DNA of 64,000 nt from a virus. Taxonomy: Duplodnaviria > Caudoviricetes. A program made the translations under genes and the position numbers. The DNA is taken from positions 37,027-101,026 of the IMG/VR virus record IMGVR_UViG_3300043120_000083; one strand, given 5' to 3'. Below are positions 5,651-41,842 of the stretch, in pieces. Below the pieces are notes generated by a model, which did not search any database, was not told the DNA's origin, and worked only from the letters and a program-made list of their open reading frames with translations. Within the stretch, counting starts at the first letter, position 1; each line of letters starts with the position of its first letter.

Positions 5651-6416
5651 AATAGATATTTATTGTTGCGACAATCTTGATTTGATGTCTGATATTCCAG
5701 ATAATACGATTGACTTAATTTATTGTGATATTTTATACGGAACTGGTAGAAAGTTTAAAGATTATCAAGATTTAAATCCGGATAGGAAAATAATTGAGGA
5801 GCATTACATTCAAAGAATAAAAGAAATGCACCGAATATTAAAGCCAACAGGAAGCATTTATTTGCAAATGGATACACGTATTAATCATTGGATTAGGTGT
5901 GTTCTTGATGATATTTTTGGGTATGATAATTTTAGAAATGAAATAATTTGGCATTATGAAGACACAATGCAAGGCAATAGTTCAATTAAGTTACCTAAAA
6001 AACATGACACAATTTATTTTTATTCTAAATCAAAAACTCACAGAATTAATAAAGTGAAAATACCTCTCAAAAAACCTAAAAAAAGGGGGAATTTTAATTT
6101 CACAGAAGGTAAATTAAAATCTGTAGATGGGTTTTCAATGTATAATGAGAAAAATATTGATTCTGTTTGGAATATAGGTGTTACATCTGTGATAAGTTCA
6201 AGAAGTAAGCAATTTATTGATTTTGAAACTCAAAAACCAAAAGAACTAATTGAACGAATAATTAAAGTGAGTAGTAACGAAGGTGATTTAGTTGCAGACT
6301 TTTATCTAGGTTCAGGAACAACTTCTGAAGTATGTAAAGACCTGAATCGTAATTTTATAGGGTGTGATATTAGTGAGAGAGCAGTAGAAATAAGTAAACA
6401 AAGATTAAATAAATAA
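5643..6416 (+). CDS. DNA methyltransferase (N4/N6, beta class)
   Basis: TQKPKELIERII and DFYLGSGTT motifs. Catalytic motif is an atypical DILY. Confidence 0.85.
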   Translation: MAEIDIYCCDNLDLMSDIPDNTIDLIYCDILYGTGRKFKDYQDLNPDRKIIEEHYIQRIKEMHRILKPTGSIYLQMDTRINHWIRCVLDDIFGYDNFRNEIIWHYEDTMQGNSSIKLPKKHDTIYFYSKSKTHRINKVKIPLKKPKKRGNFNFTEGKLKSVDGFSMYNEKNIDSVWNIGVTSVISSRSKQFIDFETQKPKELIERIIKVSSNEGDLVADFYLGSGTTSEVCKDLNRNFIGCDISERAVEISKQRLNK

Positions 6417-6420
6417 CTAT

Positions 6421-7407
6421 ATGGCTAATAAAGAAAGTGTAAAAATATCAGACGTAGTTGCTAACGTAAAGAAACGTTTCGGAGATGAAGCAATAGCTGG
6501 AGTGTCTAAAAACGTTGAATGGTTAAATACAGGCAGTATCGGATTAAATCAGGCCCTCGGTGGAGGTTGGGCTAAAGGCCGTATTGTTGAATTGTTTGGG
6601 TGGGAAAGTTCTGGAAAGTCAACACTTGCCCTTCACGCTTCAGCAGAATGCCAAAAGGAAGGTAAGGTTGTTGCATATATTGATATGGAACATGCACTTG
6701 ACCCTTTCTATGCTGAAGCATTAGGTGTAGATACAAGTGAAAAAAGTGGGTTGTGGTATTTAAGTCAACCAGATGATGGGGAAACAGCTTTAGAAATAGT
6801 GCGTGAATTTGCTAAAAGCGATGAAGTTGGGTTGATTGTTGTTGATTCAGTTTCTGCTTTACTTCCACGTGCAGTTATTGCTGGAGAAGCAGGAGATCAG
6901 AAAATAGGTTTGTTAGCACGGTTAATGTCACAAATGGTTCCAACTTTAATTGCCCCTGCTAAAAAATCAGGAGCAGTGATAATGTTTATTGGGCAGTTAC
7001 GTGAAAAAATAGGAATATCGTGGGGTGACCCTTCTGTCACTACAGGGGGGAATGCTTTAAAATTTTATTCATCACAAAGAGCTCAAGTAGCAAGGAGTGG
7101 TCAAGATAAAGATGGGGATGAAATTGTTGCTAATGGGACACGTGTTAAGGTCATTAAAAATAAAGTCGCTCCCCCTTTTAAGCAAACTAAATTCTTTATT
7201 GAGTTTGGGACAGGTATTGATAAATTAAGAGAGGTTATTGATGTAGCTGTTGAATTAGGCATTATTAACAAGAAAGGTGCAGGATGGATGAGTTACGGTG
7301 ATACTAAGTTAGGGCAGGGTGTTGATGCTGTTAAGATTTTATTGGAAGATAATCCTGAATTGCTTGAAGAAATACAAGAAAAAATAAATGAAGAACTAAA
7401 CAAATAG
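6421..7407 (+). CDS. recA: RecA recombinase
   Basis: GWESSGKS Walker A, DMEHALDP, IVVDSV, GGNALKFY and KNKVAPPF motifs. Confidence 0.97.
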   Translation: MANKESVKISDVVANVKKRFGDEAIAGVSKNVEWLNTGSIGLNQALGGGWAKGRIVELFGWESSGKSTLALHASAECQKEGKVVAYIDMEHALDPFYAEALGVDTSEKSGLWYLSQPDDGETALEIVREFAKSDEVGLIVVDSVSALLPRAVIAGEAGDQKIGLLARLMSQMVPTLIAPAKKSGAVIMFIGQLREKIGISWGDPSVTTGGNALKFYSSQRAQVARSGQDKDGDEIVANGTRVKVIKNKVAPPFKQTKFFIEFGTGIDKLREVIDVAVELGIINKKGAGWMSYGDTKLGQGVDAVKILLEDNPELLEEIQEKINEELNK

Positions 7408-16482: not shown

Positions 16483-16512
16483 ATTCCCATATAAAAGATA
16501 TTAATTTGCCGT

Positions 16513-19173: not shown

Positions 19174-19914
19174 ATGAAATATATGGGAAGTAAAAACAGA
19201 ATTGCAAAGCACATTTTACCTATAATGCTAAAATATAGAACACCTGAAATGACTTGGGTAGAACCTTTTGTTGGCGGTGCAAATATGATTGATAAGGTTG
19301 AGGGTAAAAGAATAGGTGGAGAATACAATAAGTATATTGCCGAAATGTGGAAAGCACTTGAAGCAGGATGGATTCCAAGAAGCGACTATACGAAGGACGA
19401 TTACTACAACATAAAGGCGAATATGGATAGAAACCCTGCTGAAGCGGGATATGTTGGGATTGCAGTAAGTTATTGTGGTAAGTGGTTTGGTGGATATGCT
19501 GGACTTTGCGACAATAAAAGCCGTGGGCCTGTTGACTACCAAAAACAGGCATACAACAACTTAATAAAGCAATTGCCAAATATTAAAGGTATTAAATTTA
19601 TACATAGTAGCTACCAAGACTTAGAAATACCACCAAATAGCCTTATTTATTGCGATCCTCCTTATGAAAGTACAACAAAATACAAAGACGACTTTAACCA
19701 TGCTGAATTTTGGCAATGGTGTAGAGACAAATCAAAAGAAGGACACACCGTATTTGTGAGTGAATATAATGCTCCAGATGATTTCTACTGCATTAAAAAG
19801 GTACAAACAAATACGCAACTTGGAAATGGCTGCCAGACAGGAAGCCAAAATAAGTGCGATAAACTTTTTACCCCAATGGCTGCGATAGCAGACAAAGAGC
19901 GTGGGCTTTTTTAA
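19174..19914 (+). CDS. Cassette gene, Dam/D12-class DNA adenine methyltransferase
   Basis: YMGSK, EPFVGG and YCDPPY motifs. Confidence 0.88.
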   Translation: MKYMGSKNRIAKHILPIMLKYRTPEMTWVEPFVGGANMIDKVEGKRIGGEYNKYIAEMWKALEAGWIPRSDYTKDDYYNIKANMDRNPAEAGYVGIAVSYCGKWFGGYAGLCDNKSRGPVDYQKQAYNNLIKQLPNIKGIKFIHSSYQDLEIPPNSLIYCDPPYESTTKYKDDFNHAEFWQWCRDKSKEGHTVFVSEYNAPDDFYCIKKVQTNTQLGNGCQTGSQNKCDKLFTPMAAIADKERGLF

Positions 19915-19965: not shown

Positions 19966-20246
19966 ACCTAACGGTAAATGCAAGGGTATGTGCTGCCTTG
20001 AAAACTGTACAAAAGTAGATACGAGTAAATAACGATTAAATAATTAAGCGATGGCAAAAATTAATGAATTTGAGATAAGCATGGTTTGTTATAATGAAGA
20101 TAACAAATACACATTAGAAGAAATAAACGATATGCTTGTAGAATGGGCTGAAAGTAAAGATATATACTTAGGTGGCTCTGTTAAACCGTGTGCGCCGGAG
20201 GAAACTTCGGACGAGAGCGCAGCATTACCTTTGCATGGTGTTAGCC
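19966..20246. repeat. attC-like site C (large loop containing a gene start)
   Basis: ACCTAAC, arm 19978-19996, 222-nt loop, arm 20219-20236, GTTAGCC. Confidence 0.8.
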
Positions 20247-20365
20247 AACAACGTGAACTGTTATTGGCTTTTGCTAAATGGGAGTACGAAAGTGCAGAAT
20301 TTGACGACACTAACGAATACTTAGTTGACAAGTTTTTGGAAGAAAAAGCCAATAATTGTGGCTAA
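20051..20365 (+). CDS. Cassette gene starting inside the site C loop
   Basis: Codon 64 (Val) is the GTT at 20240. The stop TAA overlaps the TAAC of site D. Confidence 0.7.
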   Translation: MAKINEFEISMVCYNEDNKYTLEEINDMLVEWAESKDIYLGGSVKPCAPEETSDESAALPLHGVSQQRELLLAFAKWEYESAEFDDTNEYLVDKFLEEKANNCG

Positions 20366-21075: not shown

Positions 21076-21105
21076 TTATAACTATTATATATAAATATTT
21101 ACCTT
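21076..21105 (-). other. attI-like primary recombination site
   Basis: The last body ends in TTATAAC with no hairpin, followed by TATTATATATAAAT, directly upstream of the integrase. Similar sequence at 39391-39412. Confidence 0.6.
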
Positions 21106-21118
21106 TAAACATTTGATT

Positions 21119-21928
21119 ATGAATATAAAACACAAATCAACATTAGGAAAATTTGAAAAATATCTTAACCTTAAAGGATATTCTAAAAGGACTATTGATA
21201 TGTATATTCATTACACAAAAGAATATATTAATAGTTTTAATAAGCCAGCCATACATTTAACAATTAAAGATTGTCAGAATTATATAGAATCATATAAATT
21301 TTCTTCTAAATCTCAACAAAACCAAATTTATTCATCTTTAAAGGCATACTATAAAAGTGTGTTGAATATTGATCTTTCACATAAAATATTTTTAGAACGT
21401 CCCAGAAAAGAAAAACGTCTTCCACAAATAATAGAGAAAGAATACCTATTGTCCTGTATCAATAATATCAAAAATTTAAAACACAAGTCAATAATTTCTT
21501 TAGGGTTTTCGGTAGGATTAAGAGTTTCTGAGGTTTGTAATTTAAAGATTGAAGATATTGATTCAAAAAGAATGATTATTAATATAAGGCAAGCTAAAGG
21601 GAGAAAAGATAGGGTTGTGCCCTTATCTCAGAATATACTTAATCTTTTAAGGGAATATTATAAACAATACAGACCAAAAACTTATTTATTTAACGGGCAA
21701 AATTCAATCAAATATTCTCCAACTTCCTGCAATAAAATAGTAAAGAAATATATTGGGGAACAATATCATTTTCACCAATTAAGACATTCATCCTTCACCT
21801 CTCTTTTAGAATCAGGAACAGATTTAAGGATAATACAAAAACTTGCTGGTCATCAAAATTCCAAAACTACAGAACTTTATACACATGTATCAAATGAGAC
21901 TCTTTCTAAAATAAGCCTTCCTATTTAA
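21119..21928 (+). CDS. Tyrosine recombinase, integron-integrase-related
   Basis: YSKRT..Y and SQQNQ..SSL N-terminal domain, RPRKEKRLP, GLRVSE, KGRKDR, HQLRHS, IQKLAGH, TTELYTHV. Catalytic residues R-K-H-R-H-Y are intact. Confidence 0.93.
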   Translation: MNIKHKSTLGKFEKYLNLKGYSKRTIDMYIHYTKEYINSFNKPAIHLTIKDCQNYIESYKFSSKSQQNQIYSSLKAYYKSVLNIDLSHKIFLERPRKEKRLPQIIEKEYLLSCINNIKNLKHKSIISLGFSVGLRVSEVCNLKIEDIDSKRMIINIRQAKGRKDRVVPLSQNILNLLREYYKQYRPKTYLFNGQNSIKYSPTSCNKIVKKYIGEQYHFHQLRHSSFTSLLESGTDLRIIQKLAGHQNSKTTELYTHVSNETLSKISLPI

Positions 21929-22397: not shown

Positions 22398-23858
22398 ATG
22401 AAAGATTCAATTTACCAATCAAAGATTTATGAAATTTACGACAACACAAACAAAAACATCTTTATTAATGCCAGTGCCGGCAGCGGTAAGTCGCATATTT
22501 TAAGGCAGTTATGTAAAAGAACACCTCCGAATAAAAGAATATGTTTTTTAGCTTTCAATAAAAGTATAAAAGAGGAAGCAGAGGTAAAATTCCCTCCTAA
22601 GGTTGACATCAGTACTTCACACTCTAAAGGCTATAAGATTTTACGAGATAATATAAATATGAATGTAACCCTAAATGAGAATAAAAACTTCATCTATTGT
22701 AAAAACACATTAAGAGATAAGAAATTCCCTAACCAACGTAAAAGAAATGCCTACTTTTTTATTATTAGTGACATCATAAACTTTGTGAAGTTAAACCTTG
22801 CCCCACACACAATAGAAGGAATAAATGGAATATGCCAAAAGTTTGGTATCCCGGTAAGCCCGGAACAAATAAAAGACACAATTAAGGTATTGAAAGAAAT
22901 AGAGAGTTGGGAGAAGAACTTGAACGGGAAGAAACCAAAGTTTATTAATTATACTGATATGCTTTATCTGGCTGTCACGAAAGTTAAACCTGAGAATTTC
23001 CCTAAGTATGATGTTGTGTGCCTTGATGAAGTGCAAGATTTTAACGTTCTTCAACAAAAATTAACACTTAATCTTTTGAAGCCTAACGGTAGATTAATAG
23101 CAGTAGGAGATGAAAAACAAAATATCTATGGATTCATAGGAGCTTCATTAGATACCTTTAATTTCTTCAAGAATAGACCAAATACTGAATCATTAACTCT
23201 CCCTATGACGTACCGTTGTGGAAAGAAAATAGTTGAGTTAGCTAATACTATCTTTCCTGAAGGAACAATCCCGTTTGAAGAAAATAAAGATGGGGAAATA
23301 CGTAAAGGAGAAGTAATAGGAGCAACTGATGGGGATTTGATTATTTGCCGGAACAATAAACCTCTAATTAAAGCATGGATAAAATTAGCTGCACAAAAAC
23401 AAAAAGCGTATATCATAGGCAAAGACTTCGGATTTACTTTAAAAGGTATATTGTTCGGACTTAAACATATTACGGACATACAGGTAGTTCTATCGGACAA
23501 AATAACGGAGTTAGTTGATTTAGGTATCACCAACCCAACTTCTAATAAATCATATCAAGCATTGAAAGAAAAATGTGATATAATAGAATTACTATATGAA
23601 GAAATTGGAGACCTAAGAGAAGTAACAAAAGTAATAGACAGTATATTCCAGAAAGATGAAACAGGGAAAGGAGTAAGGATGTCAACCATACATAAAGCCA
23701 AAGGGCTGGAGGCTGAAAGATGCTTTATCCTAAATTGGGGATTGTTACCTTCAGAATATGCAACAACAGAAAGCGAACTGTATGGGGAACGTTGTCTTCA
23801 GTATGTAGCAATAACAAGAGCAAAAAGCGAATTAGTATTTACAGAAATAGATGTTTAA
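22398..23858 (+). CDS. UvrD/Rep-family superfamily 1 helicase
   Basis: ASAGSGKS, DEVQD, VGDEKQNIY, TYRC, TIHKAKGLE and YVAITRAK motifs. Confidence 0.92.
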   Translation: MKDSIYQSKIYEIYDNTNKNIFINASAGSGKSHILRQLCKRTPPNKRICFLAFNKSIKEEAEVKFPPKVDISTSHSKGYKILRDNINMNVTLNENKNFIYCKNTLRDKKFPNQRKRNAYFFIISDIINFVKLNLAPHTIEGINGICQKFGIPVSPEQIKDTIKVLKEIESWEKNLNGKKPKFINYTDMLYLAVTKVKPENFPKYDVVCLDEVQDFNVLQQKLTLNLLKPNGRLIAVGDEKQNIYGFIGASLDTFNFFKNRPNTESLTLPMTYRCGKKIVELANTIFPEGTIPFEENKDGEIRKGEVIGATDGDLIICRNNKPLIKAWIKLAAQKQKAYIIGKDFGFTLKGILFGLKHITDIQVVLSDKITELVDLGITNPTSNKSYQALKEKCDIIELLYEEIGDLREVTKVIDSIFQKDETGKGVRMSTIHKAKGLEAERCFILNWGLLPSEYATTESELYGERCLQYVAITRAKSELVFTEIDV

Positions 23859-23874
23859 TATATAAATAATAACT

Positions 23875-24174
23875 ATGAACTATTTAATTCCAATCCCTAA
23901 CGGGCAATGCCTTTCAACTAAGAGATTGAAAGAGGTTAAAAAATTTATCCCTGAGAATAACGTTCTCAGGTTACATTTAGTAAATGAGAAACTTTCTCTA
24001 AATCAGAATAAGAAATACCAACCTCAACCGTACATCGTTCAAATAACTCAAAAAGAAATGGATGAAATAAAGAAAGAGATCAATAAAAAAGCAAAGTATA
24101 ATTTGAATGAGGTTTATATCCTTGTTCAATCTCGTAATTTACCAATTGTAAAAATAGAAGTAGGAAATGAATAA
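23875..24174 (+). CDS. Hypothetical protein
   Basis: 99-aa ORF. Confidence 0.55.
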   Translation: MNYLIPIPNGQCLSTKRLKEVKKFIPENNVLRLHLVNEKLSLNQNKKYQPQPYIVQITQKEMDEIKKEINKKAKYNLNEVYILVQSRNLPIVKIEVGNE

Positions 24175-37866: not shown

Positions 37867-38106
37867 TATTATAAACAAGAATAAATAGAAAGAATTAGTT
37901 AGGAAAAAATGGCGTGCAAAATGCACGCCTAACTATTTTTAATTTTGTAATTAGAGATAAATACTTTATCTTTATACTTTCAATTTGAATATACGTTATC
38001 TCCGATACAAGGTAACATACGATAATTTTTTAAATCCCTGTTAATTGTACTGTAATATCGGAGGCAGTATATTTTAACAGGGATTTTTTATTTAACTCCG
38101 GTAATT

Positions 38107-38586
38107 ATGCAAAAGAAAGAAAAAAGGGGACGTAAAGCCGTTCCTACTATGAAAGAAAAGATTGATAAATACACTGAAGGAGGAACAAAAGACTACAACT
38201 TCCTCTATTCAATTCCCCCCATTAACCAAAAATTAATCGTTGAAAAAGGTTGGAATATAGATATAATAGATGTTGCTATTTTTCTTGACATTAAATCTAT
38301 AATTCACTACACTCAAGATAAAAAATCAAAAGGAGAACATGTTGACACGTGGGTTACTAACGATAATAGAGGTGACTGGTATTTTATTTGCGAATCTAAA
38401 ATAATAAAAGATCTTCCTTTGCTGCCTATTGCATCTGGCAATCCAATATATAGAAGAATCAAAAAACTTTGTGAATGTGGATTAATAGAGAGGAATCCAG
38501 ACAACGCTAAAACAAGACAAAAACTTCTAAGGCTTGGCCCTAATGCTTACATGTTTGAACGTACTACCTTTAAAGGTAATAATTAG
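38107..38586 (+). CDS. Winged-HTH protein resembling the N-terminus of phage replication initiators
   Basis: WYFICESKIIKDLPLL...IYRRIKKLCECGLIER. Confidence 0.55.
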   Translation: MQKKEKRGRKAVPTMKEKIDKYTEGGTKDYNFLYSIPPINQKLIVEKGWNIDIIDVAIFLDIKSIIHYTQDKKSKGEHVDTWVTNDNRGDWYFICESKIIKDLPLLPIASGNPIYRRIKKLCECGLIERNPDNAKTRQKLLRLGPNAYMFERTTFKGNN

Positions 38587-38780
38587 ATGAACTACTTATA
38601 TATTGCTTTGTCGCAATTTATAATTCTAACCTTTTTTTTAAAAAAAAGGTAGAAGTTCAATTAAGCTTTTTTTTAAAAAAAACTAAATATAGGAATTAGG
38701 GAAAATTTTGGATTTTCCCGAACATTCTTTTATTTATAGATTAGGGAGGTTTTTTTCCTAATATTAAAAATAATAATACT

Positions 38781-39026
38781 ATGAATGTAAAAAGGGAAGA
38801 AATAAAAGGTATGACATTAAATGAATTTTCCTCTAATGAAAATAAATGCACTGAAAATCTTTTAAGTGAACTTGAAAATATAATTGAAGAAAATGGAGAT
38901 TTGAGAGTAGAAAACAAAACATTGAAAAACAAAGAATTAAAAGCTAAAATAAAGGAGTATGAAAGTAACCTATATTCTAACGAAGAATCCCCGGAAGACG
39001 AAATAAATAAACCCTATTTGAATTAA
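38781..39026 (+). CDS. Hypothetical coiled-coil protein or gene remnant
   Basis: 81-aa low-complexity ORF. Confidence 0.35.
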   Translation: MNVKREEIKGMTLNEFSSNENKCTENLLSELENIIEENGDLRVENKTLKNKELKAKIKEYESNLYSNEESPEDEINKPYLN

Positions 39027-39115
39027 AACTTGACTCTCTATTTTGTATTTCAATATAAAAGACTTTAATTTGCTTGTGATAAATGAAACGTTAAAAGAAC
39101 GAATGTGGCACTTAT

Positions 39116-39246
39116 AGCTAACGGTTGCAGATATGCCCAGTTTGGGATTAAATAGTAGAAACTTTAAATAATAGACAAAATGAATAAAAATGTAGAAACT
39201 TTAAATGAAACACAGAACCCCAAACTGGGCATATCTGATGTTAGCA
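39116..39246. repeat. Orphan attC-like site F
   Basis: AGCTAAC, perfect 19-bp arms 39128-39146 / 39219-39237, GTTAGCA. Confidence 0.85.
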
Positions 39247-39389
39247 ACTGTACTTGCGGTAAAGAAAAAAGATACTGCAAAGGTTGCTTATGCAATGTAA
39301 CTGATACAATGTTTTGCTACTGTGGTGAATTTCCACTTACAAAAGAAAGCACTTATACAGATGATGACCTTGAAGCAATGAATGTATAG
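39180..39389 (+). CDS. Cys-rich cassette gene starting inside the site F loop
   Basis: Codon 21 (Val) is the GTT at 39240. CTC, CKGC and CYC motifs follow. Confidence 0.65.
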   Translation: MNKNVETLNETQNPKLGISDVSNCTCGKEKRYCKGCLCNVTDTMFCYCGEFPLTKESTYTDDDLEAMNV

Positions 39390-39487
39390 TTGCTAACTCT
39401 CATATATAAAATCAAACCTTTAGCTAATTATATCACAACAACTTACTCAAACAAATTTTAAAGATTCATTTTAAAACCAACAAACCT

Positions 39488-40150
39488 ATGGCAACACTAA
39501 AACTATCAACAGGAGAACTACTTCATGTAACGGAAGACTACGAAAAAGTAAAGAGTTTGTTTATCTTCTCTAAAGTTGGAATTATACACTTAACTCGCAA
39601 AGTAACTCTTGATAGAGGTTTAGATTTCCCTAATGAACAGGTAGAGGAACCAATCTCTATTAACAAACAGCATATAATGACAATAAGTTAGAACTCATGC
39701 CACACTACATATCTGATTCTACAAAAGAAAAGATAAGAGGGATGATATTCTATTACAAAGAGGAAATAAAAAGGCTTGAATACGAAATGAGTGTCATTCC
39801 TGCTTCTATTTCTTGGGGTGTTAAAAGTGGAAAGAAAGAAGCATACAAAGAGATAATTAAAGAACTTGAAACCTTTTTACAAGACAAAAATGAAAATCTG
39901 GACAACAATAAGAGGGGTGATAATTGAACATCAAGACAGAAAGGTTGAGATCATTTCAGTACCCAGTGCACCAAACCCGGCTTTAAATCCAGCACAAACA
40001 ACTTCAGATTCATGTGTCTGGTTTAGACAAGAAGGAGAAAAGATGTTTAAGAAGGCAGTAAGGCGTTCTAAATTAAAACTGATAAATAGCATCTCTGAAT
40101 GTAAAACAGGAGCGGAAATAGACGAATTACTAACAAAAATGGAGGGTTAA
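39488..40150 (+). other. Three small hypothetical genes (39488, 39697, 39890)
   Basis: Packed ORFs. Confidence 0.55.
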
Positions 40151-40153
40151 ACC

Positions 40154-40402
40154 ATGAAACACTATCTTGTAACAATCGCAACCGGGGAATATGAAGATAA
40201 GACAGATTACCACATCTTCACAACCCCTAATAAAGAGAAAGCGGAAGAGTGGAAGAACAAGTTCAACCGGATAAAGGAAACAGCAAAAGAATGGGTAGAA
40301 AATTACAACATCCGGGACAGAAATGTTTTACCATTCATGTATTGGGAAAGGTTGTATTACAATCCAAAAGCAAGCATAACAGAAGTAGAATTTAGAGAAT
40401 AG
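40154..40402 (+). CDS. Hypothetical protein, paralogue of 40408
   Basis: Shares MKHY, NKEKAE..NKFNRI and LPFxYWER with 40408. Confidence 0.65.
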   Translation: MKHYLVTIATGEYEDKTDYHIFTTPNKEKAEEWKNKFNRIKETAKEWVENYNIRDRNVLPFMYWERLYYNPKASITEVEFRE

Positions 40403-40407
40403 AAAGG

Positions 40408-40656
40408 ATGAAACATTACATAGTAATAGTTCACGTTGACGATGGCATCCACTTCCTATTCTCAACTTCTAATAAAGAAAAGGCTGAGAGATATAGGAAT
40501 AAGTTCAATCGTATTGCTGGCATAAATGAAGACTGGATTCAAAGTTTTGATGCAGAAACAGCTTTAGAGAAAGGAGAAAGTTTACCATTCCACTATTGGG
40601 AACGTAAGTTTGATGATATTTTGTGTAAAGTAAAGGAAGTTAAATTTTTAGGATAA
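40408..40656 (+). CDS. Hypothetical protein, paralogue of 40154
   Basis: Same shared motifs as 40154. Confidence 0.65.
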   Translation: MKHYIVIVHVDDGIHFLFSTSNKEKAERYRNKFNRIAGINEDWIQSFDAETALEKGESLPFHYWERKFDDILCKVKEVKFLG

Positions 40657-40889
40657 AGGCTATGCAGATCATTCAAGGAGACAAATCAACCCTAATAAAG
40701 TGTATCAGGGAAGATAAAAAGAGAAATAAAGATAAGTAGGTAGGGTTTCGTAGGTTCAATTTTGGTTAGGAGAGGGGATATGGTGAAACGTCACTTTTAT
40801 CCCCTTTTTATTAAAACTTGATAAATAATTTTGTTTTTCAATATAAAGTAACCAAATTAGCACCCTAAACAAATACAAAAAATAAAGAG

Positions 40890-41842
40890 ATGAAAAAGAA
40901 CAGACAAGATTTACTTCGTGAATTTAAAACAGACAGAGGTCATTCAGCAAAACCTGATGTACTTGAACAGTTTGAACCATTTGGAGAAGATATTTCTCTA
41001 AGTATCACAGAAGAGTTTGAGGAAACGTTTGAAGAGGAGGTTTATGACACAGAAAATGAAGAGTTTCTTTGTTCAGATTTAGGTATTAAAATAGCCGACA
41101 AATGGGACAAAAGAGCAGAAGAAATAAAAGAAGCATGGGATAAGGTTGAAGGTGTAAATGATATGCTTGATGATATTCCAGACATCATTGAATATATAAA
41201 ATGGTTGGAAGAAAAGTTGGAGGATAGATAATGAGTGGGGGAAGATTTGACTATCTACAATCAAGATACGAATGGGAAGATGCTTTAGAGGTTATAGAAA
41301 GCCATATAAAAGACAACCCGGACGAATATACTGAAGAGACACTAAAACGCTTTAAAATAGGCTTTGAATTAATAAAAAAGGCGCAAATATATCTCAAAAG
41401 AATAGATTACCTTCTATCTGGAGATGATGGAGAAGAAACTTTTCACGAAAGAATAAAAGAGGATCACGAAAAAGAAAACTTAAAATTAGATTAAGCCATG
41501 AAATTAAAAACAAGAATTAAAAGAGCATTAGCAGCCTTCCTAAGAGAAGAACTATTAGAATACATAGGGTATAAACACAATTCCCCATTACATTCTACTT
41601 CATCATTCGTTGTAGAAGATATTCCATTTGATACACTAACAATGGAGAAGACTATCAATCTGGCAGGAATGAATGAAGAACGGGGTCAATATATGTTGGA
41701 AGATGAAATACAAAGAGCAAAGAAAGTGTTTGCTCATCAGGTAATGGATCACATTCACGTAGATGCAAGAGAATTGTTACACCCGGAGTATAAGTATCAA
41801 AAGTTTATCACATTAAGATTAAGAGTTCAAAGGAAACAGTAA
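40890..41842 (+). other. Three hypothetical genes (40890, 41231, 41498)
   Basis: Packed ORFs behind a promoter-like motif at ~40840. Confidence 0.6.

Follow-up and report, generated by a model that had tools for sequence, protein, structure and literature searches.

The 64,000 nucleotides (nt) analysed here, referred to as the window, are bases 37027-101026 of the IMG/VR virus record IMGVR_UViG_3300043120_000083, a Caudoviricetes genome of 101 kb that is rated 96% complete. The window is AT-rich and its + strand, on which the cassette features described below lie, holds nearly all long open reading frames (ORFs). The subject of this work is site F, a lone cassette site at 39100-39415 of the window. 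We consider it likely that site F is a free-standing second attI-like platform, placed behind a promoter-like motif, that has been used repeatedly and is served in trans by the single recombinase of the genome. Comparison with a sister phage shows, as far as sequences can tell, that at least two different cassettes have been accepted there; that the recombinase acts at F, that it does so in trans and that the motif is a promoter is what we infer.

Cassette F is 275 nt long (39123-39397) and is composed of a spacer, a hairpin, a GTT box, an ORF and a terminal AAC box. It is preceded by the AAC box GCTAAC (39117-39122), from which an unpaired spacer of 5 nt, GGTTG (39123-39127), leads into the 5' arm of the hairpin (22 nt, 39128-39149, detected as inverted repeat I5). 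The loop of 66 nt (39150-39215) contains the ATG of the ORF at 39180; the 3' arm (39216-39237) is followed by a 2-nt spacer, AT, and by the GTT box GTTAGCAAC (39240-39248), which starts with GTTAGC (39240-39245) and encodes Val-Ser-Asn of the ORF. The 22-nt arms have one mismatch, the first 19 bp being perfect, and both arms are supported by the inverted repeat, by the predicted fold and by compensatory changes in relatives. The body ends, GTTAGCAACTGTAC (39240-39253) and GTATAGTTGCTAAC (39384-39397), are complementary at 13 of 14 positions, and the GTT box is the perfect reverse complement of the end of the body, GTTGCTAAC (39389-39397). The terminal AAC opens the attI-like end AAC-TCTC-ATATATAAAAT (39395-39412), in which TCTC-ATATATAAAAT (39398-39412) follows the body without a hairpin. 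The perfect 19-bp arms, the complementary ends and the hairpin-less end had all been pointed out in the initial annotation, and each of them holds.

The arrangement is that of an attC-type site, with GCTAAC and GTTAGC outside a stem of 19-22 bp and spacers of 5 nt on one side and 2 nt on the other. Folded as single-stranded DNA, the hairpin is much more stable than shuffled sequences (z = -6.5 for the + strand and -7.8 for the - strand). Among eight homologous sites, compensatory double changes keep 8 of the 19 predicted pairs; few independent events lie behind these changes, because all of them come from contigs L019 and L020. The mismatches that recur in the stems of relatives are G-T wobbles on the + strand. 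The folded strand of site F would be read by us as DNA, rather than only as RNA, and the crossover would fall between AA and C, by analogy with the cut between G and TT of integron core sites.

The evidence for reuse comes from the sister phage L004 (IMGVR_UViG_3300035544_000031), the sole relative with the same backbone whose F locus was compared. Its flanking blocks are 90-94% identical to the window in DNA, the genes to the right of the site 94%. BLAST homology between the two phages runs to 39082 of the window, past the promoter-like motif, and resumes at 39402, where ATATATAAAAT begins. In the interval, which in both phages has the promoter-like motif on one side and the same downstream gene on the other, L004 carries a different cassette: an AAC, a 6-nt spacer, a hairpin of 18-22 bp, the box GTTGTGTGC, a gene encoding an N6_N4 DNA methylase of 241 amino acids (aa), and the terminal box GCACACAAC, directly followed by AATA-ATATATAAAAT. 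The two cassettes are unrelated and each of them ends exactly 4 nt before the same ATATATAAAAT. Relatives with another cassette between these boundaries had been proposed as a check on the site, and L004, with its hairpin-headed methylase cassette flush with AAC-N4-ATATATAAAAT, is such a relative. Since a different cassette lies at the same spot in a sister phage, the cassette system probably works at more than one place in the genome. Site F is also not a generic mosaic breakpoint, because two other gene-sized insertions of L004 relative to the window have neither a hairpin nor an AAC/GTT signature.

The hairpin of the L004 cassette has two G-T wobbles on the + strand and its long stem is predicted for the + strand only; its energy as DNA is unexceptional (z = -1.4). 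Methylase cassettes of this type are widespread in viral contigs, where they have other flanks, and their GTT box and terminal AAC box co-vary: GTTGTGTGC goes with GCACACAAC, GTTACCTGC with GCAGGTAAC and GTTAGCTGC with GCAGCTAAC, the corresponding pairs being GTGTGC/GCACAC, ACCTGC/GCAGGT and AGCTGC/GCAGCT. A circularly permuted recombination site would produce this pattern.

The docking side of site F has a counterpart at the main array, which consists of small ORFs separated by hairpin-bearing spacers upstream of the recombinase gene. The main array ends in AAC-TATT-ATATATAAAT (21080-21096), about 17 nt before the start of the recombinase ORF (21113-21928), 18 kb from site F. This ORF encodes a Xer/IntI-like tyrosine recombinase of 271 aa (Pfam Phage_integrase and SAM_4), presumed to be the enzyme that acts in trans; the 101-kb genome has no second copy and no fragment or pseudogene of another. 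On the + strand of the whole genome the anchored motif AAC-N4-ATATATAAA is found exactly twice, at 21080 and 39395, that is, at the two cassette ends. First-order Markov simulations give an expectation of 0.065 occurrences, and none of 200 simulations had two. Moreover, in six viral contigs whose recombinases share 55-61% identity with this one, AAC-TAYN-ATAT(A/G)T stands without exception immediately before the recombinase gene, with ATATAT in five of these junctions. A recombinase of 41% identity has an unrelated junction sequence. The motif therefore tracks the enzyme clade. The attI consensus first suggested, which begins with TAACT-N3, agrees broadly with the clade junctions; its T after AAC is absent in L004.

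A scan of the whole genome for strong sites, which the initial annotation had called for, returned the main array and F only, and a looser scan for hairpins with AAC/GTT boxes gave 77 hits in the genome as compared with 30-60 in shuffled sequences, mostly at chance level. Also set aside were a third AAC-N4-ATATATAAA, on the - strand, which lies within a coding region and has no hairpin; an inverted repeat at 23776-23970, which spans coding sequence and lacks the arrangement of boxes and motif; and an extended similarity of the two attI-like ends (ACCTTTA at equal spacing), which was not significant in the genome scan.

The alternative that survives best, although we regard it as unlikely, is a one-off, off-target insertion at a fortuitous AAC/GTT, in the manner of attG or other secondary sites; the likeness to attI would then be a coincidence of AT-rich DNA in a promoter region, and the L004 cassette would have arrived by homologous recombination via the conserved flanks. 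Integron integrases do insert at many genomic GWT sites, and single cassettes far from an integrase (SALINs) are common (bioRxiv 10.1101/2022.09.11.507474); over 33 nt the two ends match only as well as expected by chance, and other solitary copies of F-type cassettes (L005, L016, L020) end in varied AT-rich sequence. Yet two unrelated cassettes end at the same 4-nt distance from ATATATAAAAT, the anchored motif is confined on the + strand to two cassette ends and matches the conserved recombinase-adjacent junction of the clade, and what is probably the stub of a third cassette is found to the left. An attG-type accident does not account for two cassettes flush with the same clade-specific motif.

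On the left side of the site, the promoter-like motif ATTTTGTATTTCAATATAAAAGACTTTAATTTG (39040-39072), one of five copies of the direct-repeat family D2, is conserved in L004 and lies directly upstream of site F, as the first description of the site had it (core copy at 39053). The leftmost AAC is at 39087-39089; up to it the window reads ..ATAAATGAAAC (ending in ATGAAAC) and L004 reads ..GAAAATAAC (ending in AATAAC), and after it the two phages diverge. This AAC is probably, from the alignment of the two phages, the left limit of a satellite platform common to both. Between it and cassette F lies a stub of 33 nt, GTT...GCTAAC (39090-39122), which in local alignments fits best with the final codons and the terminal box of the cassette ORF that precedes the methylase cassette in contig L044 (score 28, shuffle P about 0.007). 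This alignment suggests, though no more than that, that the stub is what is left of the 3' end of an older cassette after most of it was deleted; F would have been added later on the attI side, which would make site F a decayed two-cassette mini-array. The empty site predicted earlier for relatives has to be changed, given the boundary at AAC 39087-39089 and the stub; with the stub left of F, the prediction becomes ...TTTAATTTGCTTGTGATAAATGAAAC (ATGAAAC) followed by N4-ATATATAAAAT.

The core of the motif, ATATAAAAG, has 13 copies on the + strand of the genome and none on the - strand, and seven of the copies are intergenic and carry the extended consensus. In this family the core is followed by N2-TTAATTTG or TATATGTTTG, and the copies in the window are at 1741, 11199, 16489, 31572 and 39053; the last gene before the main array has the copy at 16489 upstream of it, and another copy is the one directly before site F. 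The repeated motif does not overlap any sigma-70-like site, and F lacks a terminator-like hairpin. Since the motif is not sigma-70-like, its role as a promoter is presumed, and we call it promoter-like.

The stub could also be taken as support for a different history, which the initial annotation had left as an option: site F as the relic of a second complete integron-like array that has lost its recombinase gene and is now inactive. Clusters of attC sites (CALINs) are in fact often interpreted as integron remnants. We judge this improbable. The 101-kb genome holds one recombinase gene and nowhere a fragment of another, which disfavours a decayed second integron; the genes on the right are backbone genes, 94% identical in L004; and the hairpin of F and both of its boxes are intact. 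The cassette content differs between phages whose backbones are 90-94% identical, which argues for recent turnover.

That cassette F moves as a unit is seen outside this pair of phages. When the alignment of body homologues was scanned against metagenome contigs, 13 loci were returned. The whole cassette is present in L015-L018 with 83-90% identity to the window (89.5% in L015, 83% in L016 and L018), whereas the 50-nt flanks of these copies are no more similar to those of the window than unrelated AT-rich DNA. The cassettes of L016 and L018 are identical at 276 of 276 positions, and both their left and their right flanks differ. Homology among the copies starts in the box at 39117-39122, between AA and C of AAC-G, and stops directly after GCTAAC; the flanks thus differ and homology breaks at the AAC boxes, as in cassettes that move as units bounded by the core triplet. 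Cassette F is shown by these alignments to be mobile with exact boundaries. The F body also recurs in L019 and L020 behind a variant hairpin, and the copy in L018 sits in an array, because the next hairpin follows it directly. The cassette is absent from GTDB genomes.

The hairpin is mobile on a wider scale than the body. In a protein-pattern scan of viral contigs, only residues 1 to 21-23 of the ORF recur, in eight contigs, and these residues are encoded by loop, arm and box; the hairpin module is therefore common to cassettes of entirely different bodies. In such cassettes the body end is complementary to the cassette's own GTT box, as in L005 (GTTATAAAT/ATTTATAAC), L006 (GTTAGCGGT/ACCGCTAAC) and L012 (GTTATGCAA/TTGCATAAC), and the same pairing with the own end is found in L004. 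In L012 the F-type hairpin cassette belongs to a chain of several consecutive cassettes, which ends 40 nt before a recombinase gene whose product is 41% identical to that of the window.

Some further observations concern these relatives. The hairpin loop (ATTAAATAGTAGAAACTTTAAA...AAAATG) is unusually conserved among cassettes with different bodies (the window, L005, L006, L012, L015, L016 and L019), and in the window it contains a 15-nt direct repeat, GTAGAAACTTTAAAT, at 39155 and 39192; the recombination site may carry in this loop a leader for translation or expression. In L018, the F-type cassette has as its left neighbour a cassette (700-1062) that shares the GTT box GTTAGCCAA, the terminal box TTGTGGCTAAC and the motif VSQ..E.L..F..W with the main-array cassette at 20051-20365, so that cassettes of the F type and of the main-array type are neighbours in another phage. 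F-type hairpin cassettes are also found in large phage fragments, in arrays in L006-L010 (contigs of 42-140 kb, the three assessed being 26-48% complete) and singly next to tRNA genes in L005. No recombinase homologue was found in the records of L005, L007, L009 and L010, the four that were searched; the recombinase for these cassettes may be elsewhere in those genomes, or absent.

Exchange of such units without any site-specific recombinase is known from T4-type phages, in which promoter and stem-loop (PeSL) cassettes are shuffled by homologous recombination between copies, and site F could be imagined to work in the same way. A repeated promoter-like motif stands immediately before it, it has a stem-loop, its hairpin and loop sequence are common to cassettes of different bodies, and PeSLs flank small ORFans and form mini-circles (PMC2839356). 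We nevertheless find this explanation very unlikely, because the boundaries are at a 3-nt box and not inside homology, the cassette ends are complementary to their own GTT box, which is the signature of a circularly permuted site, and there is neither a sigma-70 promoter nor a terminator-like hairpin, while the arrays abut tyrosine recombinase genes. In addition, the hairpins of the window and of L004 cannot pair for homologous exchange, because they are unrelated in sequence. Least credible of all is a role of the hairpin in mRNA only, controlling translation or stability, with mobility as ordinary phage gene sharing: the sense strand is indeed the + strand, RNA would account for the G-U wobbles and the compensatory changes, and the start codon and a conserved leader are in the loop, but this leaves unexplained the exact AAC boundaries, the complementarity of each cassette to its own end, the identical cassettes in different contexts and the association with recombinase genes; a role in RNA may well coexist with the role of the hairpin in DNA.

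The preferred reading, a second platform served in trans, can be put as a sequence of steps. The + strand of the cassette would fold into a hairpin flanked by the AAC box and the GTT box; the single Xer/IntI-like tyrosine recombinase would cut between AA and C and join the folded site to a double-stranded docking site, so that a circular cassette (predicted junction ...GTATAGTTGCTAA joined to CGGTTGCAGATATG...) would be inserted immediately to the left of C-N4-ATATATA. Transcription from the promoter-like motif on the left would then run through the cassette, with its ORF beginning in the hairpin loop, and on into the downstream genes. The site has seen more than one use: the sister phage has a methylase cassette there, and in the window an earlier cassette seems to have left its stub to the left of F.

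Several results weigh against this reading. The G-T wobbles of the + strand suit a structure in mRNA equally well as folded DNA. Aligned without gaps, the two attI-like ends agree at 22 of 33 positions, which is not above genome-wide chance, and only the anchored 9-mer is significant; of the resemblance between the F end and the main-array end that had first drawn attention to the site, the anchored AAC-N4-ATATATAAA stands and the longer similarity does not. The recombinase falls below the curated thresholds for IntI, XerC, XerD and XerA: in NCBIfam it scores 148.6 bits against IntI TIGR02249 (cut-off 265), with a match that breaks at about residue 187, and 87 against PRK15417 (cut-off 435), its best score being 180.6 bits against XerA (cut-off 220). 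In a relative of 362 kb that encodes a recombinase of the clade (G006), the motif search hit an ordinary upstream region and no comparable satellite, so satellites are not a general feature. Neither an empty site nor an excised circle was seen, and one relative with this backbone, L004, was compared. The difference between the window and L004 could come from homologous exchange of the whole locus and not from fresh site-specific events, and, as the L004 contig ends short of the recombinase region, that phage may have a different enzyme.

The comparison set is narrow at this locus. A search of viral contigs with the downstream 67-aa protein gave one relative, L004, and neither exact DNA patterns from the right and left flanks nor a 276-aa neighbouring gene used as query found a viral contig beyond it. 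A protein alignment found no relatives in metagenome contigs or GTDB genomes, and blastn of 38000-41000 gave no match among GenBank phages. The protein database holds an identical 67-aa flank protein on three contigs, one of 101,185 bp, and a 76% identical version on a 34-kb Logan contig. An Rfam search at gathering thresholds and a tRNA scan of the window were both empty.

The cargo of cassette F is an ORF of 69 aa (39180-39389), which begins within the hairpin loop, continues across the arm and the GTT box and encodes a small Cys-rich protein (RYCKGCLC...CYCGE). It belongs to no Pfam family, and the atlas gave no lead. Among its 12 database homologues the Cys-rich core RYCKGC..CYCGE is conserved and the N-termini are variable; in the more distant homologues (L021-L027) the hairpin is absent. 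In the AF2 model residues 1-25, which are encoded by the hairpin, are disordered, and the chain from about residue 30 onwards folds into a small, confidently modelled beta-rich domain (pLDDT 84-90). A fold search of this domain against the PDB returned nothing significant, with weak resemblances to small zinc-binding folds; as modelled, the cargo is possibly a small zinc-binding protein.

Other differences between the two phages lie near the site. The extra genes of L004 at 983-1649 and 6355-7058 (207 aa and 227 aa) have no counterpart in the window, where the corresponding junctions are at about 37574/37575 and at 41833-41842, and the second gene is bounded by a 10-nt direct repeat. Since both are without hairpin or AAC, another mechanism of gene gain or loss acts in the same genomes. 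Upstream of site F, 37974-38979 of the window (ORFs of 159 aa and 81 aa) is replaced by 2048-2943 in L004 (an ORF of 276 aa with weak, sub-threshold helix-turn-helix matches), and the two phages share the last 45 nt or so of coding sequence and the promoter-like motif; on alignment this looks like a module swap. In the main array of the window, a Dam-type methylase gene (19174-19914) has 67-79% DNA identity to methylase genes of Vibrio, Cellulophaga, Polaribacter and Shewanella phages.

In the integron field the docking site is considered part of the integrase locus, and isolated cassettes are considered relics or insertions at unrelated sites. Single cassettes of bacteria (SALINs) and attC clusters of phages are already published. 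Site F adds a naturally occurring example in which a second docking site is similar to the primary one, is placed after a promoter-like motif and has received at least two cassettes, one of them with an anti-restriction-type methylase. If the recombinase acts there in trans, the cassette system is more than one storage array and provides genome-wide placement of accessory genes into chosen transcription units. A broader proposal, to which we give less than even chances, is a multi-platform integron with free-standing attI-like sites behind the promoters of other transcription units, besides the main array; one diffusible recombinase would then shift a stored cassette to another timing class or expression level, and back. 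Site F also offers a compact pair of recombinase substrates, a hairpin of 120 nt and a target of 18 nt, and supplies exact boundaries for finding such cassettes in viromes.

Among known systems, the PeSL cassettes of T4-type phages are small accessory genes with promoter and stem-loop flanks that are swapped between close relatives by homologous recombination between similar motifs, with a proposed circular intermediate (Arbiol et al. 2010, PMC2839356). The present cassettes differ in that their hairpins differ in sequence, their boundaries are a fixed triplet and a tyrosine recombinase is associated with them; in place of a sigma-70-like early promoter, a terminator stem-loop and exchange by homology, F has a loop of 66 nt with a start codon. 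Closer in kind are the CALINs of virulent phages, including Polaribacter phage P12002L, among which DNA methyltransferase cassettes are prominent in the account of Qi et al. (2023, PMC9892861). In that paper the sites are treated as phage-carried components of bacterial integrons and tested with the bacterial IntI1, and its abstract reports integron-integrase genes in some phages. Phage-borne attC-type sites and methylase cassettes are shared with the present system, whereas the section on CALINs of virulent phages describes no free-standing second docking site. The published CALINs may be the same kind of element, because the P12002L methylase is about 79% identical in DNA to the one in the main array.

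SALINs are lone cassettes far from the integrase, expressed only near a resident promoter and excisable in principle, and attG sites, which do not resemble attI, number thousands of scattered positions (Loot et al., bioRxiv 10.1101/2022.09.11.507474). Site F likewise holds one cassette, at a distance from any integrase gene. It differs in carrying the attI-like motif of its clade at the spacing of the main array and in having received at least two different cassettes. As regards the definition of a single coding sequence with a single attC, F has one hairpin and a recombinase 18 kb away, but an attI-like motif and a possible stub adjoin it; as regards attG, its AAC/GTT fits GWT, but it shares ATATATAAA at 4-nt spacing with the main-array end and the clade junctions.

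The classical integron is the nearest model. In both systems a conserved AAC/GTT triplet bounds the cassette, the folded site is an imperfect hairpin with an outer pair of boxes and unpaired spacing that is asymmetric, the end of each cassette is complementary to the cassette's own inner box, as a circular intermediate would lead one to expect, insertion takes place next to a docking site without a hairpin, and a tyrosine recombinase gene lies beside the main array. The differences are in the enzyme and in the layout. The phage recombinase is short and Xer-like, below the IntI thresholds and with the interrupted IntI match described above, and is not an IntI with the IntI-specific extra segment that passes curated models. 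The phage cassette genes point to the docking site, the hairpin precedes the gene and the ORF starts inside it; the docking site of F is remote from the recombinase gene and its promoter-like motif is on the far side of the cassette, whereas an integron has attI beside intI and the Pc promoter on the attI side. The system is integron-like in its working, yet it is not an integron in the strict sense.

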